Shown: in pieces, positions 28,731 to 48,179 of the stretch
Numbering within the stretch: position 1 is the stretch's first letter
Layout of the letters: each line of letters opens with the position of its first letter
DNA from: an uncultured Ruficoccus sp.
Lineage (GTDB): Bacteria > Verrucomicrobiota > Verrucomicrobiia > Opitutales > Cerasicoccaceae
Length of the DNA stretch: 64,000 nucleotides
NCBI GenBank assembly: GCA_965140785.1
Contig: OZ223519.1
Span: 64,001-128,000 of the forward strand
Direction of reading: 5' to 3'
Notes under the pieces: model-generated
The model's database searches: none
Told to the model about the DNA's origin: nothing
The model's input: only the letters and a program-made list of their open reading frames with translations
Translations under genes and position numbers: made by a program

Positions 28731-28805
28731 ACGGGTTCATTACGACATTTGATCCATTGTTCTTCTAAGTATCTAAAGCGGTTATGTCCAAAGGCAGGGT
28801 TTTGG

Positions 28806-30073
28806 TGTGGGGTTCCAAGCGCGACCGTCTTCGGAAGAATTCACGCAGTTTGACGACCCTTTCCGAACTCTCTTCAGACGTTTTTCCGTTTCAGGGCTAC
28901 AACAGCGTGTCGTTTTGACTCAATTTCGAGTTTTGTCAGGCAGCTATAGGCTCCTCCTTTCCGTTTTCGGGTTGGGCCTCTCGATAATAGTAGTTCAGCA
29001 AGCCTCCCAGCCGTTCACTTTTACGAATAGCTGAGTATTTATCGGGTTTGGTGGGCGAGTAGGGGAAAGGGATCAGATTGTCCAAGCCCTGGTGATTGCG
29101 TTCGTGGTGATAGTGCTCGACGTAGTTTTCGACGGCCTTTCGCAGTGATTTTTCACCGAGAAAAATGAAGTGGTCGAGACATTCGGTTTGCATGGATTTG
29201 ACGAAACGCTCGGCGTAACCATTTTGCTGAGGCGTGCCGATGCGGGTCTGGATGACCTCCGTGCCTGAGTCTTTGAGTGTCTTGCGGAATGCCTGGGTGT
29301 AGAGCGGGTCATGATCGCAGATAAAATATTTCATGCCATTGAGAAAGCCGTCCTCGGCGTCGGTGAGATTGCGGGCGACCTGTTCCATCACGCGACCATC
29401 GGTTTGGCAGCCAATGTGGGCGATGTGAACCTGGCGTTTGGCCAGCGACATGGCGAAAAACACGTGAAAGCGAACCAGTCTGCGCAGGGTCCAGACCTCG
29501 ACATTGAGAAAATCGGCAACGGCTATCACATCCATGTGGGAGCGCACGAAGGTTTTCCAGTTGGATTGCTTTGCGCGTTCAGGAGCGGGGAGGATGCCTG
29601 CGGAGCGAAGGATGTTGCCCACCGTTGTATCGCTGACGATATGTCCAAGGTTTTCCAATGTTCCTTGGATTCTGCCGTAACCCCAGTCGGGGTTCTCTTC
29701 GGCAAGCTTGACACAGGGTTCTCGAATGATCGCCATTTCCTTTTGACGCTCAGTTTGAGCATGCCGCTTCGCCGTGTATTTGGCGGCAATGAACCTGCGG
29801 TGCCAAGCCCATCAGCGTGCTTGGAGTTACGAGGTTTGCATACTCCTGAAGCGTCGCCCAGCCCAGCTTCTTACCTTTCTTCGCCAAGCTTCGTCGTTGA
29901 GCGTTAGTCAGGTCCAGCTTCTTGCCAGTGGCGTCGAACTGCTGCTTGAGGATGCGGTTCTCCTCAAGCAGATAATCAATGACTTGCTGCTGTTTTCGGT
30001 TCATCCAGCCTGCGATGGCCGAGAGCAAAATGATGGTCTGCGTCTTCAAAGAAAGATTTTTACAAACCTGCAA
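28806..30073 (-). mobile_element. Integrase-core (rve) transposase element with one frameshift, plus 3' non-coding flank
   Basis: AGWMNRKQQQVIDYLLEENRILK (29750-30073) joins, via a frameshift near 29808, ENPDWGYGRIQG...ADFL...DHDPLY...NGYAERFV...HYHHERNHQG...RLGGLLNYY (28936-29736). Confidence 0.88.
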
Positions 30074-30212
30074 GTTGCTGTCAATCAGGATGTTTTTTCT
30101 GCTAATTCAAAAAGTGAAGGGTACAGGAATTAGACAGCGAGAGATTAAAAGTAAATGTTACAAGTAATAAGTAATTTTTAACCTGTCTAGCAACTATCAG
30201 TTGTTGCCGTGA

Positions 30213-35751: not shown

Positions 35752-35817
35752 TGACCGTGTCCACTTAAACTGTGCCACTTGCAAAGTTAGTCTGAGTGCT
35801 TAGAAAGGACTCAGACG

Positions 35818-36084
35818 ATGAAAGGCAAGCGATACAGTACAGAGCAAAAAATCCGCATTTTACGCGCCGCTGATGCTGGCAGAGCGATCGTGGATGTCTG
35901 CCGCGAGGCAGGGATCAGCGAGCAGACGTTCCACCGCTGGAAGCGGGAGCTTGGGATGCTGGAAGTCGATCAGGCCAAGCAACTGAAGGAACTGCAAAAG
36001 GAGAACGCTCGGCTGAAGCGTATGCTGGCGGACGAGATACTTGGTAAGGAGCTGCTGAAGGAGGCGCTCGAAAAAAAATGGTAA
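35818..36084 (+). CDS. IS3 transposase OrfA
   Basis: MKGKRYSTEQKIRIL...VCREAGISEQTFHRWKR...ENARLKRMLAD: HTH plus leucine zipper. Confidence 0.93.
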   Translation: MKGKRYSTEQKIRILRAADAGRAIVDVCREAGISEQTFHRWKRELGMLEVDQAKQLKELQKENARLKRMLADEILGKELLKEALEKKW

Positions 36085-37019
36085 GCCCTGCACACAAGCG
36101 CGAGATGGCGCAAACTCTGGTGTCGCAGGGCAGATGTTCAGCGCGGGCGGCCTGCCGTCACTTTGGGTTGCATCGCAGTACCTTCGGCTATCAGGCGAAG
36201 GAGACTACGCCCTGGTTGGCAAAGTTACGTGGGGCTTTGCGTCGCAAGAGCGAAGCGCATCCCGAGCTGGGTTACCCGAAAATCACTCATCTACTCAAGC
36301 GCGATGGTTGGGACGTAGGTAAGCGGCTGGTGCAGCGCCTGCGCCAGGAGATGGGGCTGAAGTGTCCGACTAAGAAGCCTCGTCAGCGTCGGCGCGGCCC
36401 CTCGACGGGCTTACCGACAAAGGCTACTCATCGCAACCACGTGTGGACCTGCGACTTCGTGGCCGACCGTACGGCTAAGGGCGGATCAATCCGCATGCTC
36501 ACGGTACTCGATGAGTACACCCGTGAGTGCCTGTGCATCCACGTCGATCGCCACCTCAACGCCGCCAAGGTGCGAGCCGTCATGAGCGAGTTGATCAGTG
36601 CCTACGGCAGCCCCGAGCACATCCGTAGCGACAACGGCAGCGAGTTTATCGAGAAGAGCCTGCGTAAATGGTACGCGGACGAGGAGATCAAGACGCTCTA
36701 CATTGAGCCGGGCAGTCCCTGGCAGAACGGCTACATAGAATCCTTCAACGGCAGACTCCGCGATGAGTGCCTCAACCGCGAGTGGTTTTATACGCTCACC
36801 GAGGCACGCGTGGTCATTGAGGACTGGAGGTGGAAATACAACAACATCCGCCCGCACCGTTCACTCGGACTGCTCACGCCGCTCGAGTTTGCAGCCAAAG
36901 AAACCGCACCAACCCCCTTCGACATCAACTTCCAAGGCATGGGCTACACTCGGGCTACGCCCTCCTTCCGCCCAAGCCTTGACACCCTCTACAACCTAAC
37001 CCTAGAATCACATCATTAA
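36078..37019 (+). CDS. IS3 transposase OrfB (DDE), -1 frame relative to OrfA
   Basis: WTCDF...LDEYTRE...RSDNGSEF...PWQNGYIESFNGRLRDE...YNNIRPHRSLG. Confidence 0.93.
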   Translation: MVSPAHKREMAQTLVSQGRCSARAACRHFGLHRSTFGYQAKETTPWLAKLRGALRRKSEAHPELGYPKITHLLKRDGWDVGKRLVQRLRQEMGLKCPTKKPRQRRRGPSTGLPTKATHRNHVWTCDFVADRTAKGGSIRMLTVLDEYTRECLCIHVDRHLNAAKVRAVMSELISAYGSPEHIRSDNGSEFIEKSLRKWYADEEIKTLYIEPGSPWQNGYIESFNGRLRDECLNREWFYTLTEARVVIEDWRWKYNNIRPHRSLGLLTPLEFAAKETAPTPFDINFQGMGYTRATPSFRPSLDTLYNLTLESHH

Positions 37020-37067
37020 CCCGCTCAGACTAACTCTCAATGCGGTACAGTTTGCGTAGGCAGGTCA

Positions 37068-38240
37068 CGGGTAAACCGATCGTTGATGTCTGCCGCGAGG
37101 CAGGGATCAGTGAGCAGACGTTCCACCGCTGGAAGCGTGAGCTTGGGATGTTGGAAGTTGACCAGGCCAAGCAGTTGAAGGAACTGCTGAAGGAGGCTCT
37201 CGAAAAAAAAATGGTAAGCCCTGCACACAAGCGCGAGATGGCGCAAACTCTGGTGTCGCAGGGCAGATGTTCAGCGCGGGCGGCCTGCCGTCACTTTGGG
37301 TTGCATCGAAGCACGTTTGGCTATCAGGCGAAGGAAGCTGCCCCTTGGTTGGCAAGGTTACGTGGAGCTTTGCGTCGCAAGAGCGAAGCGCATCCCGAGC
37401 TGGGTTACCCGAAAATCACGCGCCTGCTGAAAAAGGACGGCTGGGATATCGGTAAACGGCTGGTGCAGCGCCTGCGTCAGGAGATGGGGCTGAAGTGTCC
37501 GACCAAGAAGCCACGTCAGCGTCGGCGTGGTCCCTCGACGGGCTTGCCGACAAAGGCCACGCACCAGGGCCACGTGTGGACCTGCGACTTTGTTGCGGAC
37601 CGCACGGCTAAGGGTGGCTCCATCCGCATGCTCACGGTGCTCGACGAGTTTACCCGCGTACCGAACTGAGGCGAAGCCTCGGTGACAAAGCGCAGCGCCC
37701 ATGCCTGTGCATCCATGTGGATCGCCACCTCAACGCCGCCAAGGTGCGGGCCGTCATGAGTGAGTTGATCAGTGCCTACGGCAGCCCCGAGCACATTCGC
37801 TCCGACAACGGTTCGGAGTTTATCGAGAAGAGTCTGCGGGGTTGGTATGCCGACGAGGGCATCAAGACACTCTACATCGAACCGGGCAGCCCCTGGCAAA
37901 ACGGCTACATCTAGTCCTTCAACGGACGACTACGCGACGAGTGTCTCAACCGCGAGTGGTTTTACACGCTCACCGAGGCACGCGTTGTCATCGAAGATTG
38001 GCGCTGGAAGTATAACAACATCCGCCCGCATCGTTCTCTCGGACTGCTCACGCCACTTGAGTTTGCAGCAAAAGAAACAGCACCAGAACTCTTCGAAACC
38101 AACCTCCAAGGCATGGGCTACACTCGGGCTACGCCCTCCTTCCGCCCATGCCTTGATACCCTCTACAACCGAACACTCAATCACATCATTAATCCGCTCA
38201 GACTAACTCTCAATGCGGTACAGTTTGCGTAGGCAGGTTA
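37068..38240 (+). mobile_element. Degenerate IS3 copy 2 (left end missing)
   Basis: Begins mid-orfA directly after the IRR of copy 1. Has a ~60-bp deletion in orfA, a 43-nt insertion at 37659-37701, a TAG stop at ~37912, and an IRR ending ...GCAGGTTA. Confidence 0.92.
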
Positions 38241-38404
38241 GGTGTTTTTTCTAAAACATATTGTTCGATTTCTTTGCCGAAATAATTCTGACACTTGTCA
38301 CAAACCTTTCCTTTGAGCACTAAATCATCGTTTCCGAGTGACTCAGGAATAATATGCTCAATCGTTGAGAAAGGGCCATCGGCTTTGCAAAAAACGCATT
38401 TCAT
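38241..38404 (-). pseudogene. HNH endonuclease N-terminal fragment truncated by IS3 copy 2
   Basis: MKCVFC...EHIIPESLGN...VCDKCQNYFG is HNH_5-like; the frame runs into the IS right end. Confidence 0.75.
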
Positions 38405-38595: not shown

Positions 38596-39043
38596 GGATT
38601 TTTGGCGGGGGCATTGGGGCTGTGGAAGGGGGCGATTCTGGCGGTTGAAACTCAGAATACGGCTTTTGGAAGCGGGGTTGCGTAAGCTTTTGCTGGCAGC
38701 CACTTACAAAAAATCCCGCTCGGTGTGCGAGGCGGGATTTTTTGTGGCAGGGGTGGTCGGTGTGCCCGCGACAGGAAAAAGATGGGGTGGCAAGCGGGAC
38801 CGTCTTCGGAGGAATTCACGCAGTTCGGCGCCCCTTTCCGAACTCTCTTCAGACCTTTTATCGTTTCAGGGCCATAAAAGCGTGTCGTATTGACTCAATT
38901 TTGGGTTTTGTCAGACAGCGACAAGCGTCTCCTTTCCATTTCTGGGTTGGGCCTCGCGATAATAGTAGTTCAGCAAGTCTCCCAGCTGTGCGTGCTGGCT
39001 GACGCACTGCCTGTCACTTTTACAAATAGCTGAGGATTTATCG
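38596..39043 (-). mobile_element. 3' remnant of a second rve transposase element with its long non-coding flank
   Basis: 38783-39043 aligns with 28806-29044 (...LG.LLNYY.REAQPE...). 38596-38790 aligns with 17690-17882. Carries a 24-nt insertion at 38986-39009. Confidence 0.85.
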
Positions 39044-39048
39044 ACCTT

Positions 39049-40040
39049 AGCGGGAGTGTAGCCCATGTCCTGGAAGTTGATTTCGAAGAAGTCTGGTGCG
39101 GTTTCTTTTGCTGCAAACTCGAGCGGCGTGAGCAGTCCGATGGAACGGTGCGGACGGATGTTGTTGTACTGGGCGCTTCGCTAGTGTCGTCGTTACGCTC
39201 CTCGGTAGTCGGAGCGGATGTGCTCGGGGCTGCCATAGGCACTGATCAGTTCGCTCATGACGGCTCTGACTTTGGCGGTGTTGAGGTAGCGATCAACATG
39301 GATGCACAGACATGGGCGCTGCGCTTTGTCACCGAGGCTTCGCCTCAGTTCGGTACGCGGGTGTACTCGTCGAGCACAGTGAGCATGCGGATAGATTCGC
39401 CTTTGGCCGTGTGATCGGCCACTACCGAGCGCGGAGCGCGACATGACCACAAGAAAACAAGTCGCAGGTCCACACGTGGTTGCGATGAGTAGCCTTCATC
39501 GGTAAGCCCGTCGAGGGACCGTGCCGACGCTGACGAGGCTTCTTGGTCGGACACTTCAGCCCCATCTTTTGGCGCAGAGGTTGCGCCATCTCGCGCTTGT
39601 GTGCAGGGCTTATCGAGTCCGCGAGGCAGGACTCGCCATTTTCTCCGAGCGCCTCCTTCAGAAGCTTCTTGCCCAGTATCTCGTCGGCTAGCATGCGCTT
39701 CAGCCGTGCGTGTCAGGCCTTCTCGCTACGCTCGTGAACTCCTTTTGCAGTTCCTTCAGTTGCTTGGCCTGATCGACTTCCAGCATCCCAAGTGTCTTCG
39801 CTTTCGCTCGAGTGTCGCCGTGCCAATCGGCACAGGCTTGGTACGCGTTTCCAGCGGTGGAACGTCTGCTCGCTGATCCCCCGCCTCTCGGCAGACATCA
39901 ACGATCGATTGGCCCGCATCAGCGGCCCGTAATAGGCGGATCTTTTGTTCGGTACTGTATCGCTTGCCTTTCATCGTCTGAGTCCTTTCTAAGCACTCAG
40001 ACTAACTTTGCAAGCGGACCAGTTTAAGTGGACACGGTCA
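39049..40040 (-). mobile_element. Heavily degenerate IS3 copy 3 with six short insertions and two internal deletions
   Basis: IRL TGACCGTGTCCACTTAAACT at 40040. Aligns piecewise to copy 1; right end missing. Confidence 0.92.
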
Positions 40041-40057
40041 ATAATCGTCTTGTTGTC

Positions 40058-41293
40058 CTAAGTGGAAGTAGCCTCAATGAGCGTCTCAACCGGCGTGAAA
40101 GCAACATCCACACGGCCTAGCACCGTTGTTGTGTAGCACAGGTAGCGGTCTGAGGCGCAGAACTGGGGGTGGGGATGGACGTGGTAATTGCGTTGCGATT
40201 TAGTCGGACGTGGCATCTGTGAGACGATGTTTACTTCGTGCCCAGTTTTGCGATTCAGAAATGCAACCCGACTTTCGGAAGGAAGCTGCGGCGGCTGGGA
40301 ATCGGCGACCAGATAACTCCCGGTGCGGTCGGAATGGGCATGGGAGGCATGCGTGAGCGGCCAGACCAATTCCGGAATCGGCGAAGACACACACGCCCGC
40401 TCCACGCCGGTGCCATAGTGGACATACCAGACTTTTCTGCCATCGGCGTCCCACCACTCATGCCCGTGCATGGCACGACAATCCGTAGGGTGCCTGCTGG
40501 AGACGCCGTGAAGATGCTCATTTGTCATGGTCGTCTCACCCTTGTAGGGGATCGGCTGCGCAAAGAGCGGAGTGGCCTTTTTTTCGCGCCGGATCAGCCA
40601 GATTCTGTTCTCATAACCTGTGACGTTTCCTGTAATGGGGTGGACGGCGTAATCCTGGGCAATCATTTGAACGTCTGGATCCGTCGGACTAAACTGTCCA
40701 TGGTTATAGCAGCGGTCGAATCGCTGCCATAGTTCGACCTGGCTGCCGTCAAGAGGGATGCTTCCCACCAGCCATTCGGCTCCGAATTCAGCGTCGAAAT
40801 TGAGCGAACGCTTGTCCGCCGAAAACGTAAGATGGGTGGCAACCCGCACTGGCTGACGGCTGCGCGCGAGCTCTTGCGGCAGTCGATTAACCAGGCGAGG
40901 CTTATCGTCTCGACCGGGGCCACGTTTCCAAACCTCAAGGTTACTGCACCAGTAGACCTCTGCAGAGTCGGTATCAACCAGCGGCGATGCGTCCAGAAAC
41001 TGTGTCTCGGGAAAGTGCTCGATGCGTCCCCTGGCAAAGTCGCAAACGCCCAGCATGCGTCCTTGGCGACTACTGCCGCCCGGAGGGCATGCGAAGTAGA
41101 ACCAGCAGAAGCGCCCGTCCGCGCTCATGCCCGGGTTGACGAAATAGAAGGACTGCTGCAACTCGGCGACACGGGAAGTGAGGATGTAGCTGACAATTCC
41201 TGACTTCGGATCTTGCCAGGGGCTAACCAATGAGGACTTGGAAATGGTTGGCCTGCTCCGTTGCTGAGTGTTCGACAAAATAGTGGTTGACAT
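40058..41293 (-). CDS. Oligogalacturonate-lyase (PL22)-like beta-propeller protein
   Basis: W.DP.SG, SFYFVNPGMSADG, YNHGQFSPTDP, HEWWDADG and HPHPQF metal-binding motifs. Start likely MSTTIL at 41293. Confidence 0.65.
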   Translation of the reverse strand: MSTTILSNTQQRSRPTISKSSLVSPWQDPKSGIVSYILTSRVAELQQSFYFVNPGMSADGRFCWFYFACPPGGSSRQGRMLGVCDFARGRIEHFPETQFLDASPLVDTDSAEVYWCSNLEVWKRGPGRDDKPRLVNRLPQELARSRQPVRVATHLTFSADKRSLNFDAEFGAEWLVGSIPLDGSQVELWQRFDRCYNHGQFSPTDPDVQMIAQDYAVHPITGNVTGYENRIWLIRREKKATPLFAQPIPYKGETTMTNEHLHGVSSRHPTDCRAMHGHEWWDADGRKVWYVHYGTGVERACVSSPIPELVWPLTHASHAHSDRTGSYLVADSQPPQLPSESRVAFLNRKTGHEVNIVSQMPRPTKSQRNYHVHPHPQFCASDRYLCYTTTVLGRVDVAFTPVETLIEATST

Positions 41294-41309
41294 ACCTGAT
41301 GAAAACAGA

Positions 41310-41327
41310 TGACTTATCGGTAAGTCA
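41310..41327. promoter_or_regulatory. LacI-type palindromic operator TGACTTA-TCGG-TAAGTCA
   Basis: Perfect 7-bp arms around a central CG, in the 35-bp gap between the divergent PL22-like and LacI genes. Confidence 0.7.
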
Positions 41328-41328
41328 A

Positions 41329-42390
41329 ATGGATAAATCACCGACAGCAACACCATCCTGGCGTGTCACGATCGCAGATCTGGCCGAGGCTTTGGGCCTT
41401 AGCCGGGCCTCGGTTGCGGCGGCTCTTTCCAATAGCAGTGGGAATACCCGGGTCAGTGATGAAACCCGCAAGCGCGTCAGCGAAATGGCTGAGCGGATGA
41501 ACTACCGGGTCAACACCAGCGCCCGCGCGTTGAATCAGCGTGTGTTTAAAAATATCGGATTCTTTGCGGTAAAGAAGAATTCGGACGACTATACCTTTGC
41601 TGAGATGATTCTGGATGGCATCGCAGCGGCGGCGTCACGCCACGGGCAGAATGTCGTGCTGGTACGCATTCCGGAATACGTCATGGGCTCGGACAATATC
41701 CCGAGCGCGTTGCGGGAGGCGTGCCTTGATGCGCTTATCGTCGAGAATGTCGCCAACATGGGAAAGACATTCCGGGATGCGGTAGAGGCCAGTTCGATCC
41801 CGGTTGTTTATCTCAATGACAAGCGCCCGCAAAACTCTGTTTACGTGCAGGATGATAAGGCCGGGGCCATGATGACGGGCCATCTGATCAAACAGGGATT
41901 TAGTAAGATCGCGATACTGGCCCCGAATCTGAACAACAACCACTACAGCTTCATGGATCGCATCTGCGGGTATAAATCCACGATGCGTAAGGCCGGACTG
42001 GAACCGGTTGTCTGGGATTTTCCGAGCGAGAACTGGAAAGAGGCGACGGCCCGGATGCTGAATCTCAAAGATCGCCCGGACGCGATTTTCTGCGCGGACG
42101 ATCAGATTGCCCTTTGTCTTCAACAGATACTCTACAGGCTGAACATTCGGTTCCCGGAACAGTTGGCCATCGCCGGATGTAACGGCGAAGCGTTTTCCGC
42201 GCATTCGATGGTCCCTCTGACGACGTTGAAAATCCCGTTTCGGGAGATGAGCGAGGCGGCGGTGGATATGGCCATGAGCCTTGTGCGCGACAGGGCTCGC
42301 GGCTCGCTTCCCTCACTGAAGTTTGTTCCCGAACTGATTGTCGAAGAATCCACCCGTTTCTTTTCTCCCATAGACTCATTAACCCAATAA
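41329..42390 (+). CDS. LacI-family transcriptional regulator
   Basis: VTIADLAEALGLSRASVAAAL...RVSDETRKRV...NYRVNTSARAL; PDAIFCADD; PLTT; LIVEEST. Start could be 41299 or 41329. Confidence 0.93.
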   Translation: MDKSPTATPSWRVTIADLAEALGLSRASVAAALSNSSGNTRVSDETRKRVSEMAERMNYRVNTSARALNQRVFKNIGFFAVKKNSDDYTFAEMILDGIAAAASRHGQNVVLVRIPEYVMGSDNIPSALREACLDALIVENVANMGKTFRDAVEASSIPVVYLNDKRPQNSVYVQDDKAGAMMTGHLIKQGFSKIAILAPNLNNNHYSFMDRICGYKSTMRKAGLEPVVWDFPSENWKEATARMLNLKDRPDAIFCADDQIALCLQQILYRLNIRFPEQLAIAGCNGEAFSAHSMVPLTTLKIPFREMSEAAVDMAMSLVRDRARGSLPSLKFVPELIVEESTRFFSPIDSLTQ

Positions 42391-42405
42391 CTAAAATCTC
42401 TTATC

Positions 42406-43149
42406 ATGCATCCGTACACCCCAAATCATAAGCGTGCACCACTGGCATATCCGATTTCCGCAGTCGCTGTGGCGCTGCTCGGTCTGACATGCGCTCCGCT
42501 TGCCTCCGCCCAGTACACGATCACCACTAGTGTTAGCGACTTGGCCCCGACAGAAAATATCGCACTGAGCAATACCGCGACTCCCGGGGGAGTTGATCAA
42601 GACGCCACCTATGCATGGAAAGGCAAATCACCGACTGACTATCGCGACGTGACCCAGACATTTACGGTCGGGGCGGACGGTTTCTACCTCGATGCCTTTG
42701 CGATCAAGATTGGTAATGTCTATAGCTCCAGTGACGCGGGCTTTACCATGACGCTGAGTTCCTATGACAGCGCGACTGAGGAGCCGCTAGGCGAAGTTGT
42801 TTGGACTAACAGCGGTGTGCTTCCGACCGCAATGGCCACGGATCAGTACCTGACCTTTGACCTCGATGAAACATTTCTGGATGCGAATACCACCTACGGC
42901 ATAGCGATTTCGTATTCCGACTATACTCCATATCGGCAAGTCGGCTTCTACATCACCTATGGGAGCTCTCTGGATGGCGGGGCGTTATGGGGCTCCGACA
43001 ACAGCCATGACAACTGGGCCATTACGAATAACGATCTGACGCAGTTTTATCTGCTGGCAGCCGTTCCCGAGCCGTCCACCTGGGCGCTGATCTTTGCCTC
43101 CGGCGCGTTTGCTGTTGCACTGGGCGTGCGCCGCTTCCGCCGCAACTAA
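42406..43149 (+). CDS. PEP-CTERM surface protein
   Basis: Signal peptide ...APLASA; C-terminal VPEPSTWALIFASGAFAVALGVRRFRRN. Confidence 0.92.
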   Translation: MHPYTPNHKRAPLAYPISAVAVALLGLTCAPLASAQYTITTSVSDLAPTENIALSNTATPGGVDQDATYAWKGKSPTDYRDVTQTFTVGADGFYLDAFAIKIGNVYSSSDAGFTMTLSSYDSATEEPLGEVVWTNSGVLPTAMATDQYLTFDLDETFLDANTTYGIAISYSDYTPYRQVGFYITYGSSLDGGALWGSDNSHDNWAITNNDLTQFYLLAAVPEPSTWALIFASGAFAVALGVRRFRRN

Positions 43150-43168
43150 CCGCCTTACCTCATCAGTC

Positions 43169-44191
43169 ATGAAGACATTTACCTGCCTCGTTATGATGGC
43201 GGCAGCGACAGCTGTCGCTGCAAATCCCCTGCTGCGCAACGCGGATTTCTCTGCGGGTAAGGACGGATGGTCGCTGGAATTGCATAATTCCGCCAAGGCG
43301 ACATGGGATGTCGCCGGGAATCGCGGCTCCGCCCCATCATCTGTGCCCGCGGACGGGAATGCGCTCTGTGTATCCATGAGTACCGTCGAGGCCAAACCGT
43401 GGGATTATCAACTGATCCAGAGCGGGATCGCGCTCAAGCCGGACACTAGCTACGTGCTTTCGTTCTGGGCGAACTCGACGAAGGGGCAGGACATCGGCCT
43501 TTCAATCGGAGAAGGACAGGCTCCCTGGAATACGGCTGGCCTCAAGCAGTCTGCCGGGTTGGCTCCGGGGTGGAACTATTACAGTTATACCTTCAAAACC
43601 AATGCTCTGGCCGCGAATAACCCCCGCCTGGTTGTCAATCTAGGCTATGACGTGGGCAAACTGTGGATCACTGATTTTAAGCTCAGCCCCGAATCGGAAC
43701 CGGGCGTCAATCTGCTCAGGGACGGCAAGTTCGTCCGTGAGCAGGAGGAGTGGTCGACGCGGGGAACGCATCATCCCGGTTTTTCTGTCTCCTATCAAAG
43801 CGTGAAGTCGTTGTTGTCGGGCAGTTCCACTCCCGCGGTGACGGCAGACCAGCCTATTGCGGCCATACGCATCACCACGCCGGGCAAGAGTACGCTGGAT
43901 GTGAGCCTGAAGCAGAAGGCTATCGCCCTGAAGCCCGGTAAGCGCTATCGGCTGACCTTTCGCGCCTGCTCTTCCCAGCCGCGTGAGTTGCGTGTGCTGG
44001 CCCAGCAGGATCACAGTCCCTGGTCTTGGGCCGGACTGCGTGGAAGCGCCGAGCTGGGCGAGTCCTGGGAGACCTATCGCTACGAGTTTGTCGCGACCGA
44101 GGCGGCAAATGAGCCGTTGCAATTAAAGCTGGCGATGGGCGTGCCGAACGGAAATATCTGGATATCGGACCTGTCGCTTGAGCAGATCTAA
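43169..44191 (+). CDS. Secreted tandem CBM4/9-like carbohydrate-binding protein
   Basis: Signal peptide MKTFTCLV...AVA; two repeats LL.N/DG.F...QL.Q.GIALKP...Y.L.F.A...PW...G.LWI.D..L. No catalytic domain visible. Confidence 0.8.
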   Translation: MKTFTCLVMMAAATAVAANPLLRNADFSAGKDGWSLELHNSAKATWDVAGNRGSAPSSVPADGNALCVSMSTVEAKPWDYQLIQSGIALKPDTSYVLSFWANSTKGQDIGLSIGEGQAPWNTAGLKQSAGLAPGWNYYSYTFKTNALAANNPRLVVNLGYDVGKLWITDFKLSPESEPGVNLLRDGKFVREQEEWSTRGTHHPGFSVSYQSVKSLLSGSSTPAVTADQPIAAIRITTPGKSTLDVSLKQKAIALKPGKRYRLTFRACSSQPRELRVLAQQDHSPWSWAGLRGSAELGESWETYRYEFVATEAANEPLQLKLAMGVPNGNIWISDLSLEQI

Positions 44192-44203
44192 ACATAAACG
44201 GCT

Positions 44204-44839
44204 ATGATACCATGTCGATCAAGAGGGTTTTCCTTGGTAGAGATTCTGGTCTCATTGGCTGTCGTGGGGATTCTGTGTCTGATTACGGTGCCGGTCGTAG
44301 GAAACATGCGCCAACGCGCCCGGGAAGTGGAGTGCGCCTCCAACCTGCGTCAACTGCATGTGTATTTGAACATATTCATGCAGGATGAAAACGGTAAAAT
44401 CCCCGTTGCCTGGGACGGTTCGTCCGCATGGCTTGACGCCTATGCGTGGTACTTGCGCTACGCCCCGGAGAATGGGCCGGATGGTAATCTCGATATCCTG
44501 TGTTGCCCCGAGCAGGCCATGGAAGCTCCGACTGCCAGCCGTACCTACTCGATGAATTCACGGATCACCAACAGCTATTGGAATGCTTCCCCGGTCACGC
44601 TCTTCACTCTCGTGTATCCGGAGCGCACGCTTTTCTTGTCCGACGGGGTGAGCTCCGGTTCGGGTTTCGGAGGGGCGATCAGCGATAGCTCGCTGTCACG
44701 TCTGGAGCCGCCTCACAACGGGCGGGCCAATGTCCTCTTCTTCGACGGTCACGTCGAGAGCCTGAGCAAGGACGGCTACCCGACGGAGAATATCAACGAG
44801 CTCGGCAGCGCCGCTTCGATATTCTGGAACGGCCGATAG
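44204..44839 (+). CDS. Prepilin-type N-terminal methylation protein with H-X9-DG motif
   Basis: RGFSLVEILVSLAVVGIL...CASNLRQL and PHNGRANVLFFDGHVE. Confidence 0.9.
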   Translation: MIPCRSRGFSLVEILVSLAVVGILCLITVPVVGNMRQRAREVECASNLRQLHVYLNIFMQDENGKIPVAWDGSSAWLDAYAWYLRYAPENGPDGNLDILCCPEQAMEAPTASRTYSMNSRITNSYWNASPVTLFTLVYPERTLFLSDGVSSGSGFGGAISDSSLSRLEPPHNGRANVLFFDGHVESLSKDGYPTENINELGSAASIFWNGR

Positions 44840-44857
44840 CTCTTAATATTCAGATTA

Positions 44858-46657
44858 ATGCTCAAAAGTATTTTTATTTTATCTGCGACGGTACTCCTGT
44901 CCCCACTCGGTATGCACGCCTCGGAAGTCCCTCGCGGAACAGATATCTTTCCGCATGCGATCGAGAAGCTGGAGGTTAACTCTGCGTCTCCGCAAGAAGA
45001 TTATCTGGAAGTCCAAATGGTTGCGGTCGAAGGGCAGCCGTTCAATCAGGCGATCGAAGCCAAAACGCTGCAACAGACCGACTGGCCTTGGCACACACAG
45101 TTTCAGGCTGATGTACCGACCGCAGTCGATCACGGGGATGTCGTTTTGCTGGAGTTCTGGATGAGGACCCCCACGACTCAGGCTGAGAGCGGCGAAGGCA
45201 AAACACAGTTTACCTTCGAGCAAAAGGGTGGGGAGTTCGTCAAGTCCGTCGCGTATGATGCCAGTGCGGGTTCGAAATGGATGCACTTTCAAGTGCCCTT
45301 CCGGGTGCGCGGCGTAAAGGGCAAGGGCTTCGCGCCGGGAGAGGCGCAAATCTGCTTCCGCCTGGGGTATCGCCCGCAGACAATTCAACTGGCGGACATC
45401 CGGCTGACCAATTATGGTTCGGAGACGGAAGTGGAAAGCCTCCCCCGAACCAGCCGCAGCTATGCCGGACGCGAGGCCGATGTGCTCTGGCGTGCCCAAG
45501 CCCAGTCCCGCATTGAGGAGCTGCGTATGGCACCTCTGGTCATTCGTGTCGTGGACGCGGAGGGCAACCCGGTCAAAGGTGCGAGCGTCGATGTGCAAAT
45601 GACGCGGCATGCGTTTTTCTTCGGCAGCGCGATCAACCTTCAGTACTTCATGCGCCAGACCGTCAACGGCGAGCGTTACCGTGAGTTTGTACTCAAGCAC
45701 TACAATCAGGTTGCTCCTGAAAACGACCTGAAGTGGAACCGCTGGGAACGCGATGCGGGGGTCCGCCAAAACGTCATTGATGCGCTTTACATCCTGCGTG
45801 AACACGATATTCATGTGCGCGGTCACTGTCTGATCTGGCCGGGCTTCCGCGTGATGCCGCCTGACATCCGGAATATCATCGCGAATCGCGTGGCTTTGGA
45901 TGAACGTATCGAGCATCACTTTGAAGAGATTCTCGACCTTACGGATGGATTGGTTGACGAGTGGGACGTGGTGAACGAGCCGTATGCGGAACGTGCGATT
46001 CTGGATCGTTACGGCGACGCGTTAATCGGCGACTGGTTTCGGATGGCGCACGACATCTCACCTGAGCCGACGCTCTATCTCAACGACTATGCGGGGTTCA
46101 TCAACGGGGGCGATAACACCGCGCATAAAGACTATCTGGAGCAGTTGATCGCGGACTTGCTGGCGCAGGGCGTGCCCGTGCAGGGCTTGGGGATTCAGGG
46201 GCATTTTGGCAGCTTCGTCTGTCCGCCAGAGGCGATCCTGAAGGAGCTGGACCGGTTTGGGAAATTCGGGCTTCCCATCCAGATTACCGAGTTCGACATC
46301 GACTCAATGGACGAGAAACTGAAGGCCGATTACACCCGTGATTTTCTGACGGCCTGTTTCAGCCACCCCGGTGTCGTCGGTGTCAACACCTGGGGCTTTT
46401 GGGAGGGCGATCACTGGAAGCCGTCTGCGGCTCTGGTACGCAAGGACTGGACGCTCACTCCCTGGGGAGCCGTCTGGTTTGATTTGATTGAACGCGAGTG
46501 GTGGACGCATGAAACCGGAACGACGGACCGGGACGGACGCTTCAGCTTATCCGGCTTCTTAGGTGACTATGAGATCACGGTCGAGGGGGCAGGCAAGAAG
46601 GTATCTATTCCGGATTCGCTGGCCAAGGACCAGCCTGAACTTGTCATCGAGCTATAG
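44858..46657 (+). CDS. GH10 endo-1,4-beta-xylanase-like protein with N-terminal CBM-like domain
   Basis: PENDLKW, VRGHCLIW, WDVVNE, LYLNDY, GLGIQGH and IQITEFD GH10 motifs. Confidence 0.92.
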   Translation: MLKSIFILSATVLLSPLGMHASEVPRGTDIFPHAIEKLEVNSASPQEDYLEVQMVAVEGQPFNQAIEAKTLQQTDWPWHTQFQADVPTAVDHGDVVLLEFWMRTPTTQAESGEGKTQFTFEQKGGEFVKSVAYDASAGSKWMHFQVPFRVRGVKGKGFAPGEAQICFRLGYRPQTIQLADIRLTNYGSETEVESLPRTSRSYAGREADVLWRAQAQSRIEELRMAPLVIRVVDAEGNPVKGASVDVQMTRHAFFFGSAINLQYFMRQTVNGERYREFVLKHYNQVAPENDLKWNRWERDAGVRQNVIDALYILREHDIHVRGHCLIWPGFRVMPPDIRNIIANRVALDERIEHHFEEILDLTDGLVDEWDVVNEPYAERAILDRYGDALIGDWFRMAHDISPEPTLYLNDYAGFINGGDNTAHKDYLEQLIADLLAQGVPVQGLGIQGHFGSFVCPPEAILKELDRFGKFGLPIQITEFDIDSMDEKLKADYTRDFLTACFSHPGVVGVNTWGFWEGDHWKPSAALVRKDWTLTPWGAVWFDLIEREWWTHETGTTDRDGRFSLSGFLGDYEITVEGAGKKVSIPDSLAKDQPELVIEL

Positions 46658-46745
46658 ATAGGGGGTTGAATCCTCTCTCCTTGAATGTGATGATTTAAGT
46701 TTTATTATTAATAGTAATGTTCTTATGATTTCGTCGAAATTTGCT

Positions 46746-47054
46746 TTGAGGCCGCCAGCTTTCCTTTTGTTGGGCATGTTGGCGGGGTGGGGGAAGCTGC
46801 GAAGCGCTGACCTATGAACCGTCAGCAGCAAGTCATCGAGTATTTGGTTGAGGAGAACCGTACTCTCCGTGAGCAACTGAATATCCACGCCAAGGGCAAA
46901 CGCATTCGCTTCAACGCGAACCAGCGCAGGCGTTTGGCCGGGAAAGACCGTTGCCTGGGACGCAAGATGCTGATGAAGATCGCGACGCTGGTGACACCGG
47001 AGACGATCTACCGCTGGCATCGTCAACTCGTCGCTATGGCCTATACTCCGAAAG
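46746..47054 (+). mobile_element. 5' fragment of an rve transposase, with a 23-nt insertion
   Basis: LRPPAFLLLGMLAGW[insert 46791-46813]MNRQQQVIEYLVEENRTLREQL...LVTPETIYRWHRQL is homologous to 29750-30073. Confidence 0.85.
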
Positions 47055-47186
47055 GTCGGGATTATTCTGCTGCCCATGCGAGGCGGTCCGCATTCCTTCA
47101 ACCTGACGCCCGCCGGCCAGGATCTGCGGCCAGCGCTGCTGGATTTCCTGAAGGAGAACCTTGGCGAGCCACATCAAAAATCCTAG
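47055..47186 (+). pseudogene. 3' remnant of a probable alpha/beta-hydrolase (esterase)
   Basis: Hand translation VGIILLPMRGGPHSFNLTPAGQDLRPALLDFLKENLGEPHQKS* resembles the catalytic-His C-terminus of alpha/beta hydrolases. Confidence 0.4.
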
Positions 47187-47231
47187 TCAAAAAAACGCTC
47201 ATTCTCGTATCAATCCCTATACTGACGCCCC

Positions 47232-48179
47232 ATGAAAAGCCGATTCCTGCCTCCCTGTTTTATCGCTATCATTAGCTTGTCGTTTTGTTCTGTCTTTGCC
47301 ACCCCTGGATGGGCGCAGGACATTTCAACGGGCTTTGAAGACGGCAGCCTGTCTCCGTTCGGACTGGAGAGCCTTCCGGGAAACGTTTCCGAAGTTGTCA
47401 CGCCGACGGGTTTCTCCGCGCGCGCCGGTAATAAGGTCAACCGCATCGTCTGGTACGCGGACAATTACGAGGGCGCACGCACGGGGCGGAGCGTCGAGGG
47501 CCAATCCTACAAACTCGACCGCATCACGAGCGAAGGTTGGTACGGCTTCAGCTTTTACGCCCCAGAATCCTTTCCCGTTCCGGACAAACGGATGGTGCTG
47601 GCGCAGATTATTGCCTGGGATCCCAGCTTACCCAATACGAACATTACCATCACGGTCGGCGTGAATGCGCTCGGTGCCCTCATCCTTGAAGGGGCGTATG
47701 GCGTGGGCGACGGTGCCAAAGATGTCAGCGTGTACACCCCGATTGCGCCCGTGTTGACCAAAAACACTTGGCACGACGTGATCCTGTACTGCAACTTTTC
47801 GCGTGACAACACCGGTATCCTGCAAGCCTGGTATGACGGCGCTCCCGAGTCGTCCCCGACCATTTCGGCCACGGGTATCAACCTTGGCAATGGCGCGTGG
47901 ACGGACGACAACACACTGACGACCGGGGGCTACATCAAATGGGGCCCCTACTGCTATGACAGTGCCAACTATGTGCCGGGCGAAAGCCGCGAGATTTACT
48001 ACGATGAAATTTCGTACCTCGTGGGTAATCCCGAAGGGGCGTTCGACCTGGTCAAGGCAGAGGGCTACGGCACGATCCCGGAGGGAAGCTCGACGCCTTT
48101 GATTCTTGCGCTCGCGGCTTTGTTGGTGGCTGTTTTGCCTCGGAGGGGTAAAATAGCTCTGCGAGCGATTGTTGAATGA
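47232..48179 (+). CDS. PEP-CTERM-anchored polysaccharide-lyase-like (jelly-roll) protein
   Basis: Signal peptide; GFEDG, R..E, WYGFSFYAP, LAQ, WHDVI, YIKWGPY and REIYYDEI resemble the Polysacc_lyase fold; IPEGSS + TM + RRGK. Confidence 0.7.
   Translation: MKSRFLPPCFIAIISLSFCSVFATPGWAQDISTGFEDGSLSPFGLESLPGNVSEVVTPTGFSARAGNKVNRIVWYADNYEGARTGRSVEGQSYKLDRITSEGWYGFSFYAPESFPVPDKRMVLAQIIAWDPSLPNTNITITVGVNALGALILEGAYGVGDGAKDVSVYTPIAPVLTKNTWHDVILYCNFSRDNTGILQAWYDGAPESSPTISATGINLGNGAWTDDNTLTTGGYIKWGPYCYDSANYVPGESREIYYDEISYLVGNPEGAFDLVKAEGYGTIPEGSSTPLILALAALLVAVLPRRGKIALRAIVE

Follow-up and report, generated by a model that had tools for sequence, protein, structure and literature searches.

Short, site-linked insertions in transposase genes of an uncultured Ruficoccus sp. 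are not united by hairpin shape

Small dispersed repeats (SDRs) and repetitive extragenic palindromic (REP) sequences are the closest known elements to the short inserts described here, three of which interrupt transposase genes in a 64,000-nucleotide stretch of the genome of an uncultured Ruficoccus sp. (contig OZ223519.1, positions 64,001 to 128,000, or C48:64001-128000 in our numbering; hereafter, the window). SDRs of heterocystous cyanobacteria are reportedly 21 to 27 nucleotides (nt) long and are said to insert into genes and insertion sequences (ISs), each family having a conserved sequence and many dispersed copies. REPs resemble the inserts in being 20- to 40-bp stem-loop repeats, some of them inside genes; the survey by Di Nocera et al. 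(2013, PMC3733652) describes REPs with a GTAG tag in Opitutus terrae, where intragenic units were most numerous, and CGTC REPs that end in a CCA tail. REP doublets that form hairpins (REPINs) are, according to Bertels and Rainey (2011, PMC3116915), likewise nonautonomous hairpin DNA and are thought to be moved in trans by IS200-like Y1 proteins, the REP-associated tyrosine transposases (RAYTs).

The genome (4.36 Mb in 50 contigs, ~59% G+C, 90.85% complete) carries the three segments in two transposase families. Site (i) (39613..39635, minus strand) lies in an IS3 element, a group with the Pfam domains HTH_Tnp_1 in orfA and rve/rve_3 in orfB. Site (ii) (46791..46813, plus strand) and site (iii) (38986..39009, minus strand) lie in fragments of a second family with an rve_3 integrase core, here labeled family R. 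A sequence-only reading of the window had taken the three for a second, structure-defined class of stem-loop micro-element that is active in this lineage. All three segments were found where that reading had placed them, each missing from paralogs, and alignment against empty copies confirmed clean insertion, with no deletion or duplication, at every site. None of the three belongs natively to its transposase. Taken together, our comparisons show derived, clean, and site-linked insertions, with hairpin potential for (i) and (iii) and, in sequence, kinship to other inserts for (ii) and none for (i) or (iii). We put at about even the chance that the three segments came from a process, active in this lineage, that inserts tiny pieces of DNA into DDE (rve) transposase genes and that they are not one family. 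Of the claimed micro-element activity, what survives is a process by which short inserts get into transposase genes; the single family does not.

The SDRs fit the inserts in size; they differ in phylum, the host here being of Opitutales type, and in dispersal, since (i) and (iii) are near-unique. REPs, according to PMC3733652, have an unpaired GTAG/CGTC (TGTC/CCTC) end tag, occur in tens to thousands of copies, and are mostly extragenic, lying mainly downstream of genes. No such tag stands beside the stems of (i), (ii), or (iii) (a CGTC in site [iii] straddles stem and loop and so is no end tag), the copies number 2, 9, and 1, respectively, and the inserts all lie in transposase genes at one fixed site. 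The short CCA tail of CGTC REP units, as given there, does resemble the tail (...GCGCCCA) of a first, modular class of inserts in this genome, which we call class 1. The GTAG of class 1, unlike the REP tag, is just one form of a GCG-N-AGC loop. The likeness to REPINs extends to the presence of two Y1_Tnp genes in this genome. However, according to PMC3116915, REPINs are inverted REP doublets rather than single hairpins, RAYT genes are flanked by their own repeat whereas the Y1 genes here are flanked by an unrelated one, and the inserts lack genome-wide dispersal. The defining features of these systems (end tags, doublets, many dispersed copies, and RAYT linkage) fail for the three segments. 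No Rfam family matched the inserts. The literature consulted held no such inserts in transposase genes of Verrucomicrobia beyond the O. terrae GTAG REPs, and the supplementary tables of PMC3733652 may list relevant intragenic units.

The architecture claimed for the three segments, two arms of 7 to 8 nt around an 8-nt loop ending in GC, holds at site (i), holds in part at site (iii), and fails at site (ii). Folded as DNA and compared with 200 shuffles per site, site (i) forms a perfect 7-bp stem with an 8-nt loop (-7.8 kcal/mol, z -3.17; equaled by 3 of 200 shuffles). Site (iii) forms a 6-bp contiguous stem with 7 of 8 positions paired (-5.7 kcal/mol, z -3.14; 1 of 200). Site (ii), with 5 of 7 arm positions paired, folds like its shuffles (-2.9 kcal/mol, z -0.56; 54 of 200), its sole stable feature being a GCGAAGC mini-hairpin. 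A genome-wide search against 10 dinucleotide-preserving shuffles found 47 perfect 7-bp stems with an 8-nt loop ending in GC (34.7 +/- 5.0 in shuffles), 245 8-bp stems with at most one mismatch and a loop ending in GC (222 in shuffles), and 7251 7-bp stems with at most two mismatches and such a loop (6502 in shuffles); looser versions gave 1.10 to 1.25 times the shuffle mean. Enrichment was thus only 1.1- to 1.4-fold, so that hits are scarcely more frequent than in shuffled sequence, and a pattern this near the shuffle level is too weak to define a family. The proposal of a structure-defined family falls on this result together with the unremarkable fold of (ii). The main value of the result is corrective: shape alone defines no family here.

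Sequence does not bring the three together either. They do differ from one another, as had been said, but (i) has a near-identical second copy, and (ii) recurs in 8 of 12 paralogs and in a ninth, diverged copy. Moreover, (ii) groups by sequence with the first class, and (i) and (iii) resemble no other insert type, which dissolves the second class as a grouping. Placement after GG is exact for (i) and (ii); for (iii) it follows from the codons, but the MAFFT alignment sets the gap 4 nt upstream. The clean hairpin inserts (i), (ii), (iii), and G, a further type described below, can all be placed after GG, for G as one of five equivalent placements, and a GG preference at these four sites is suggestive only. 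Searches of the flanks within +/-700 nt for a local template returned longest exact matches of 7 to 8 nt, a length that 231, 245, and 468 of 500 shuffles also attained; local templating from these flanks is therefore unsupported for the three sites. Four same-genus genomes yielded only fragments of IS copies and no syntenic locus, and contigs from four runs were mostly paralogous IS copies, with no filled/empty contrast at the three sites.

Site (i) lies directly 3' of the slippery A-run/ATGG of IS3 copy 3 (39048..40060, minus strand), a degenerate element that holds five more short inserts and several deletions. On the minus strand it reads AAAATGG[CGAGTCCTGCCTCGCGGACTCGA]TAAGCC, with arms CGAGTCC and GGACTCG, loop TGCCTCGC, and then A. 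The empty-site reference is the intact IS3 copy 1 (35752..37072, plus strand; HTH_Tnp_1 in orfA, rve in orfB), which has 11 near-identical copies in the genome. A gapped alignment of copy 3 with copy 1 shows a 23-nt insertion between reference positions 330 and 331, and the flanking blocks are contiguous in copy 1, with 0 bases lost or duplicated. The genome has two copies of site (i), one in IS3 copy 3 and one at C39:123038, where a degenerate IS3 reads AAAAATGG[CGAGTCCTGCCCCTGCGGACTCG]GTAAGTCC, with a junction identical to that in copy 3. The two inserts are one substitution and one indel apart; the OrfAs of their hosts share 48% identity, and the flanks are far more diverged than the insert. 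The C39 version is 24 nt long, keeps the orfB frame, and reads MASPAPADSVSPGHKRE. In the nearest paralog of the C39 element (C4:241400), a class-1 TACCGAGCC... element occupies that junction instead.

Neither the 11 intact IS3 copies nor the degenerate copy 2 (37070..38245, plus strand) has site (i). An OrfA search of 400 genomes of the phylum supplied 29 foreign IS3 loci, 2 of which stopped short of the frameshift window; no hairpin separates the A-run from the conserved T(A/G)AGCCC...CACAAGCG segment in any of the 27 informative windows. The nearest foreign relatives of the C39 element (57 to 59% identity) likewise lack it. Ancestral presence of (i) would need many precise losses, which points to lateral acquisition in at least one of the two hosts; because the same sequence stands at the identical site in two far-diverged IS3 lineages, we read (i) as inserted or copied laterally rather than inherited. 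The insert pushes the slippery run and the native frameshift hairpin apart and, in copy 3, puts orfB out of frame. The IS3 family's own stimulator is apparently a longer hairpin that begins in TAAGCCCTGCACAC (pairing by eye). We rejected the native frameshift-stimulating hairpin as the identity of (i), since (i) is absent in 27 of 27 foreign loci and in the intact copies of this genome. In its core, (i) has 12 nt that match, in reverse complement, a segment of intact IS3 orfA ~190 nt upstream; by a rough, uncomputed estimate, the chance of such a match is ~0.002 to 0.005. By eye, (i) agrees with the head of the B-type insert at 13 of 17 columns, a likeness that is not significant in shuffle-tested local alignment.

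The inserts to which these sites were compared came from a comparison of the genome with itself, which gave 91 loci with paralog-specific insertions of 12 to 90 nt, most of them a handful of types in IS3 and family R. At least 10 kinds of 23- to 49-nt inserts interrupt DDE transposase genes at conserved motifs. Besides the three sites, they include A-type (43 nt; TACCGAACTGAGGCGNAGCCTCGGTGACAAAGCGNAGCGCCCA), B-type and C-type (each 36 to 38 nt), D-type (35 to 37 nt, antisense to the transposase), E-type (49 nt), a 26-mer, and G-type (24 to 25 nt; a stem-loop with a 7-bp stem and a 9- to 10-nt loop). Ten types, 323 nt in all, contain the heptamer GCGNAGC 10 times, where 0.35 occurrences are expected from its genome frequency (Poisson P of ~5e-12). 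It is carried by 7 of the 10 types and, as a GCGAAAGC variant, by E, and it is absent from (i) and (iii). Common to types A, B, and C are a TACCGA head and a GCGNAGCGCC(CA) tail. The class-1 module, TACCGA - hairpin - GACA.. - GCGNAGCGCC(CA), is 35 to 49 nt long, with further copies at C26:132667, C26:133519, and C10:470021, among others. Its pattern has 19 matches in the genome, of which those checked lie in IS3 or family R and one, C25:112883, looks like a chance match.

Wherever an empty site was available for comparison, the A, B, and C inserts replace the AG of a G-AG-T/A target, usually a Glu codon. The targets (hyphens set off the residue replaced) are YTR-E-CLC in IS3, VE-E-NR and IKR-E-CLD in family R, and DNGP-E-F in an IS3 of another genus. 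We know of no element that makes an AG-replacing junction of this kind. The insert sites cluster at conserved transposase motifs, D lying 3' of the TCD in TCD-F and G between the NG and Y of NG-Y; we take TCD-F and the other motif sites to correspond to catalytic residues of DDE enzymes. Pairwise local alignment of twelve insert sequences, each tested against 300 shuffles, gave scores reached by 0 of 300 shuffles for A-B, A-C, B-C, A-G, C-G, C-26-mer, B-(ii), D-(ii), and the two (i) copies. The class-1 head, the GCGCC(CA) tail, and the G-AG-T replacement are absent in (i), (ii), and (iii), all of which are clean insertions. What (i), (iii), and G-type have in common is only a generic hairpin and a size of 23 to 24 nt.

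Several types recur at one site in different transposase families. A-type is present in both IS3 and family R, at 39313..39355 (minus strand; TACCGAACTGAGGCGAAGCCTCGGTGACAAAGCGCAGCGCCCA) in IS3 copy 3 and, as an identical element type, at 37659-37701 (plus strand) in copy 2. In orfA of copy 3, the 26-nt insert with a GCGTAGC core (39713..39738, minus strand) is 26/26 identical at the homologous site of the other IS3 family (C25, C49, and C10), and the alignment of the hosts, insert included, is ~84% identical. D-type (39423..39459, plus strand and thus antisense, just 3' of the first catalytic Asp codon) is 33/35 identical between IS3 copy 3 and a second IS3 family, and G-type occurs at NG-Y in family R and the second IS3 family alike. 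Copy 3 also carries a C-type insert at the junction of a ~200-nt deletion (39170..39207, minus strand) and the 49-nt E-type insert in orfA (39797..39845, minus strand).

Site (ii) does have relatives among these types. Its host is an N-terminal fragment of family R (46700..47090, plus strand), in which homology to the family-R paralogs ends at ~47090. The 23-nt insert, with a GCGAAGC core, stands between codon 5 (W) and the MNR codons (GGGTGG[GGGAAGCTGCGAAGCGCTGACCT]ATGAAC on the plus strand); it splits the AGW-MNR motif and cuts off the first five codons. That this motif is contiguous near 30000 was confirmed: in an alignment of the N termini of 12 genomic paralogs, 8 have the insert and 4 are empty and contiguous, including the nearly intact copy at 28780..30100 (minus strand; one frameshift), which is empty at the (ii), (iii), A, G, and B sites. 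The two full-length intact family-R copies (C26:80634-82079 and C4:131355-132764) also lack (ii). Copies among the paralogs differ at 0 to 4 of 23 positions, the diverged ninth copy at C4:20390 differs at 7 of 23 (by eye), and one same-genus genome carries a copy with one mismatch. The local score of (ii) against types B and D, as observed, was reached by 0 of 300 shuffles. From these comparisons, (ii) is, in our reading, an old, decaying, headless relative of the class-1 GCGNAGC micro-repeats, inherited vertically inside one IS family, and it looks older than the other inserts.

Site (iii), a 24-nt in-frame hairpin insert encoding QCVSQHAQ, lies between ER and LGG in a C-terminal remnant of a family-R transposase (38783..39047, minus strand). 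As had been noted, it is missing from the homolog near 29010: the alignment shows a 24-nt gap at ~29014, and by codons the remnant reads KSDR[QCVSQHAQ]LGDLLNYYYREA against KSER-LGGLLNYYYREA. Eight residues are thereby added inside the conserved ERLGGLL motif. None of 25 homologs (23 foreign and 2 from this genome) has the insert, ER-LGG aligning without a gap, and within the genome (iii) is a singleton.

How such segments might arrive can be sketched as follows. In the process that we favor, a trans-acting enzyme would move hairpin DNA, and the DNA would arrive as short single strands able to form hairpins and would enter at G-rich sites (after GG), leaving inserts that are often hairpin-forming, usually with one fixed site per insert type. 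Two nearly identical Y1_Tnp genes (IS200-like, HUH), 309-residue frames at C10:480168-480497 and C43:224747-225076 (L033 and L034), are flanked by AAGGGGTCA / TGACCCCTT inverted repeats of a GGGGTCA type that recur elsewhere in the genome. A TnpB-type partner (PF07282) was not found in this genome, which is 90.85% complete. If site-specific writing of hairpins is real, the inserts would rank with the smallest known mobile or templated ones and would offer a route by which ISs get switched off. The clean filled and empty sites would make the insertion chemistry directly accessible to study, and the inserts make transposase genes look frameshifted in annotation. The interest is moderate and comes from a site specificity without explanation and from the AG-replacing junction of the related class.

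A bolder version, which we doubt, would make the inserts active, Opitutales-wide hyperparasitic micro-elements that home to the most conserved DDE codons and so disable ISs. Their homing sites would be the slippery site, TCD-F, DNGx-E-F, NG-Y, and R-E-CL, and also a group II intron; class 1 would swap the target AG for the element, and (i), (iii), and G would enter cleanly after GG. We know of no described enzyme with this chemistry.

Family R bears on the age of the inserts. Its filled and empty copies interleave on the tree, and one intact empty copy groups as sister with a filled copy (support, 0.97 to 1.0). Copies filled with A, G, and B (C26:132530-134100, C26:163780-165400, and C4:167300-168900) have otherwise open frames. 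The ratio of nonsynonymous to synonymous substitution rates (dN/dS) is 0.07 for the two intact copies, 0.06 to 0.09 for pairs with the freshest filled copies, and 0.18 to 0.21 for pairs with an older filled copy, one that is also broken by additional frameshifts and stops. Four family-R copies carry exactly the same 43-nt A-type sequence, and two of these, compared over the full open reading frame, have a dS of 0.44; variation among nine A copies falls mostly in or next to two GNA triloops. The inserts are thus either much younger than their host lineages, or homogenized, or constrained.

A number of observations weigh against an inserting process. Three filled family-R copies share an identical 34-nt stretch upstream of A, and recombination among family-R copies, which are 85 to 90% identical, could spread one original insert, so that independent insertion is secure only for the cross-family cases; that cross-family sharing is not explained by recombination within family R. 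Only two copies of site (i) are known: a pattern search for its exact hairpin gave no hit in any of 40 relatives, and the 16 matches from a metagenome scan lay in unrelated coding contexts, never in IS3. Neither (i) nor (iii) is linked to any other insert type or to the other, the best value being 0.07 for G versus (iii). Site (iii) is a single event and indistinguishable from an ordinary indel, and the structural pattern occurs genome-wide near chance level. As mobilizers, the Y1 genes are the only candidates seen, and they are candidates only, being flanked by a repeat unlike the inserts.

These points lend some weight to a possible, though less probable, account in which the segments are mutational debris: independent replication errors (quasi-palindrome or template-switch insertions) in decaying pseudogenes, spread by descent, IS duplication, and paralog recombination, with no mobile micro-element behind (i) and (iii). 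The uniqueness of (iii), the orphan sequences of (i) and (iii), and a hairpin pattern at only 1.1 to 1.4 times the shuffle level speak for it. The host copies are also heavily decayed and have many other indels, the family-R copies are similar enough to recombine and have identical flanks beside an insert, and the core of (i) matches orfA in reverse complement over 12 nt ~190 nt upstream. Errors of this sort account poorly for an identical 23 to 24 nt at the exact junction of IS3 lineages whose OrfAs are 48% identical and whose flanks are far more diverged than the insert, or for at least five other insert types that keep one insert to one site across families that have diverged beyond the reach of homologous recombination. 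The flanks of the three sites offered no local template for any of them, and (i) and (iii) fold far better than shuffles.

Two further accounts were weighed. That the segments are native functional parts, with (i) the frameshift hairpin of an IS3 subgroup, (ii) a leader or start element, and (iii) a lineage-specific loop, would suit the position of (i) 3 to 4 nt 3' of the slippery A-run, its 24-nt, in-frame form in orfB of the C39 element, the preserved frame of (iii), and the location of (ii) just 5' of an ATG. We nevertheless regard it as scarcely credible: such a hairpin is missing from all 27 informative foreign IS3 windows, the IS3 family has a longer stimulator of its own (by eye), (i) occurs in none of the 11 intact and presumably active IS3 copies, (ii) is missing from both intact family-R copies, and 0 of 25 homologs has (iii). 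Very unlikely as well is that the inserts are tolerated, being removed from RNA as mini-introns or skipped by ribosome bypassing so that the transposase stays functional. Several filled copies are open for 200 to 360 codons between inserts, the dN/dS of the freshest filled copies (0.06 to 0.09) is as low as that of intact copies, three filled IS3 copies are 99.7 to 99.9% identical, and synonymous sites in the host genes have changed more than the inserts have. To our knowledge, bacteria have no machinery that splices inserts of 23 to 49 nt, and the coexistence of intact empty copies means that a low dN/dS may predate insertion. Older filled copies, with extra frameshifts, stops, and a dN/dS of 0.18 to 0.21, look as expected of genes killed by insertion. 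Bypassing does have a precedent in phage T4, where a 50-nt bypassed insert is reportedly carried by a mobile element (10.1101/2022.08.31.505936). At the junctions here, no matching take-off and landing codons were seen, and several inserts, (i) included, split a codon (by eye). A T4 gene 60-type bypass element was rejected for (i), (ii), and (iii) on the first of these grounds.

Relatives of the class-1 inserts are spread across Opitutales. A scan of one genome per species, from which 80 loci were fetched, included 12 loci with Opitutales-type taxon names (by title); 9 of these 12, from eight taxa, have a modular class-1 element, and the matches at the other three and at all remaining loci look fortuitous. 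One relative lies in IS3 orfB of another genus. A C-type relative lies in a group II intron of another genus of the same family (L050, G014:C14:25200-28300, positions 1520-1559), where it lies inside a 49-nt extra loop in domain I (RF02001, 84 bits). Class-1 elements stand beside tRNA genes, on their downstream side, at seven loci, at two of them as two tandem copies. In other Opitutales genomes, a TACCGAGG...GACGACAAAGCGNAGCGCC module lies 50 to 200 nt from tRNA genes (L047, L048, L058, L076, L105, and L109); L047 and L058 have two tandem module copies of ~110 to 115 nt, and three tRNA-adjacent loci have a conserved GA(C/T)GAGAACC(T/A)(T/A)GGTTCG segment 5' of the module.

Other observations concern the filled elements themselves and the surroundings of site (ii). 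The second IS3 family, at C25:51300-52750 with copies at C25:73206 and C49:932, is 99.7 to 99.9% identical among its copies, and their orfB consists of three frame-shifted open pieces separated only by 35-nt and 25-nt inserts; three near-identical filled copies imply that a filled element was duplicated after its interruption. A single class-1 insert stands at deletion junctions at C26:99178-99530, C26:178634-179042, C4:241400-241950, and window positions 39170-39207. Recombination between two inserts in one transposase gene appears to give short deletion derivatives that resemble miniature inverted-repeat transposable elements. Downstream of site (ii), window positions 47085-48161 are 99.7% identical to C4:228711-229786; the identical stretch starts at about the end of family-R homology (~47090), and an open reading frame in this region (47232-48179) encodes a Polysacc_lyase domain.

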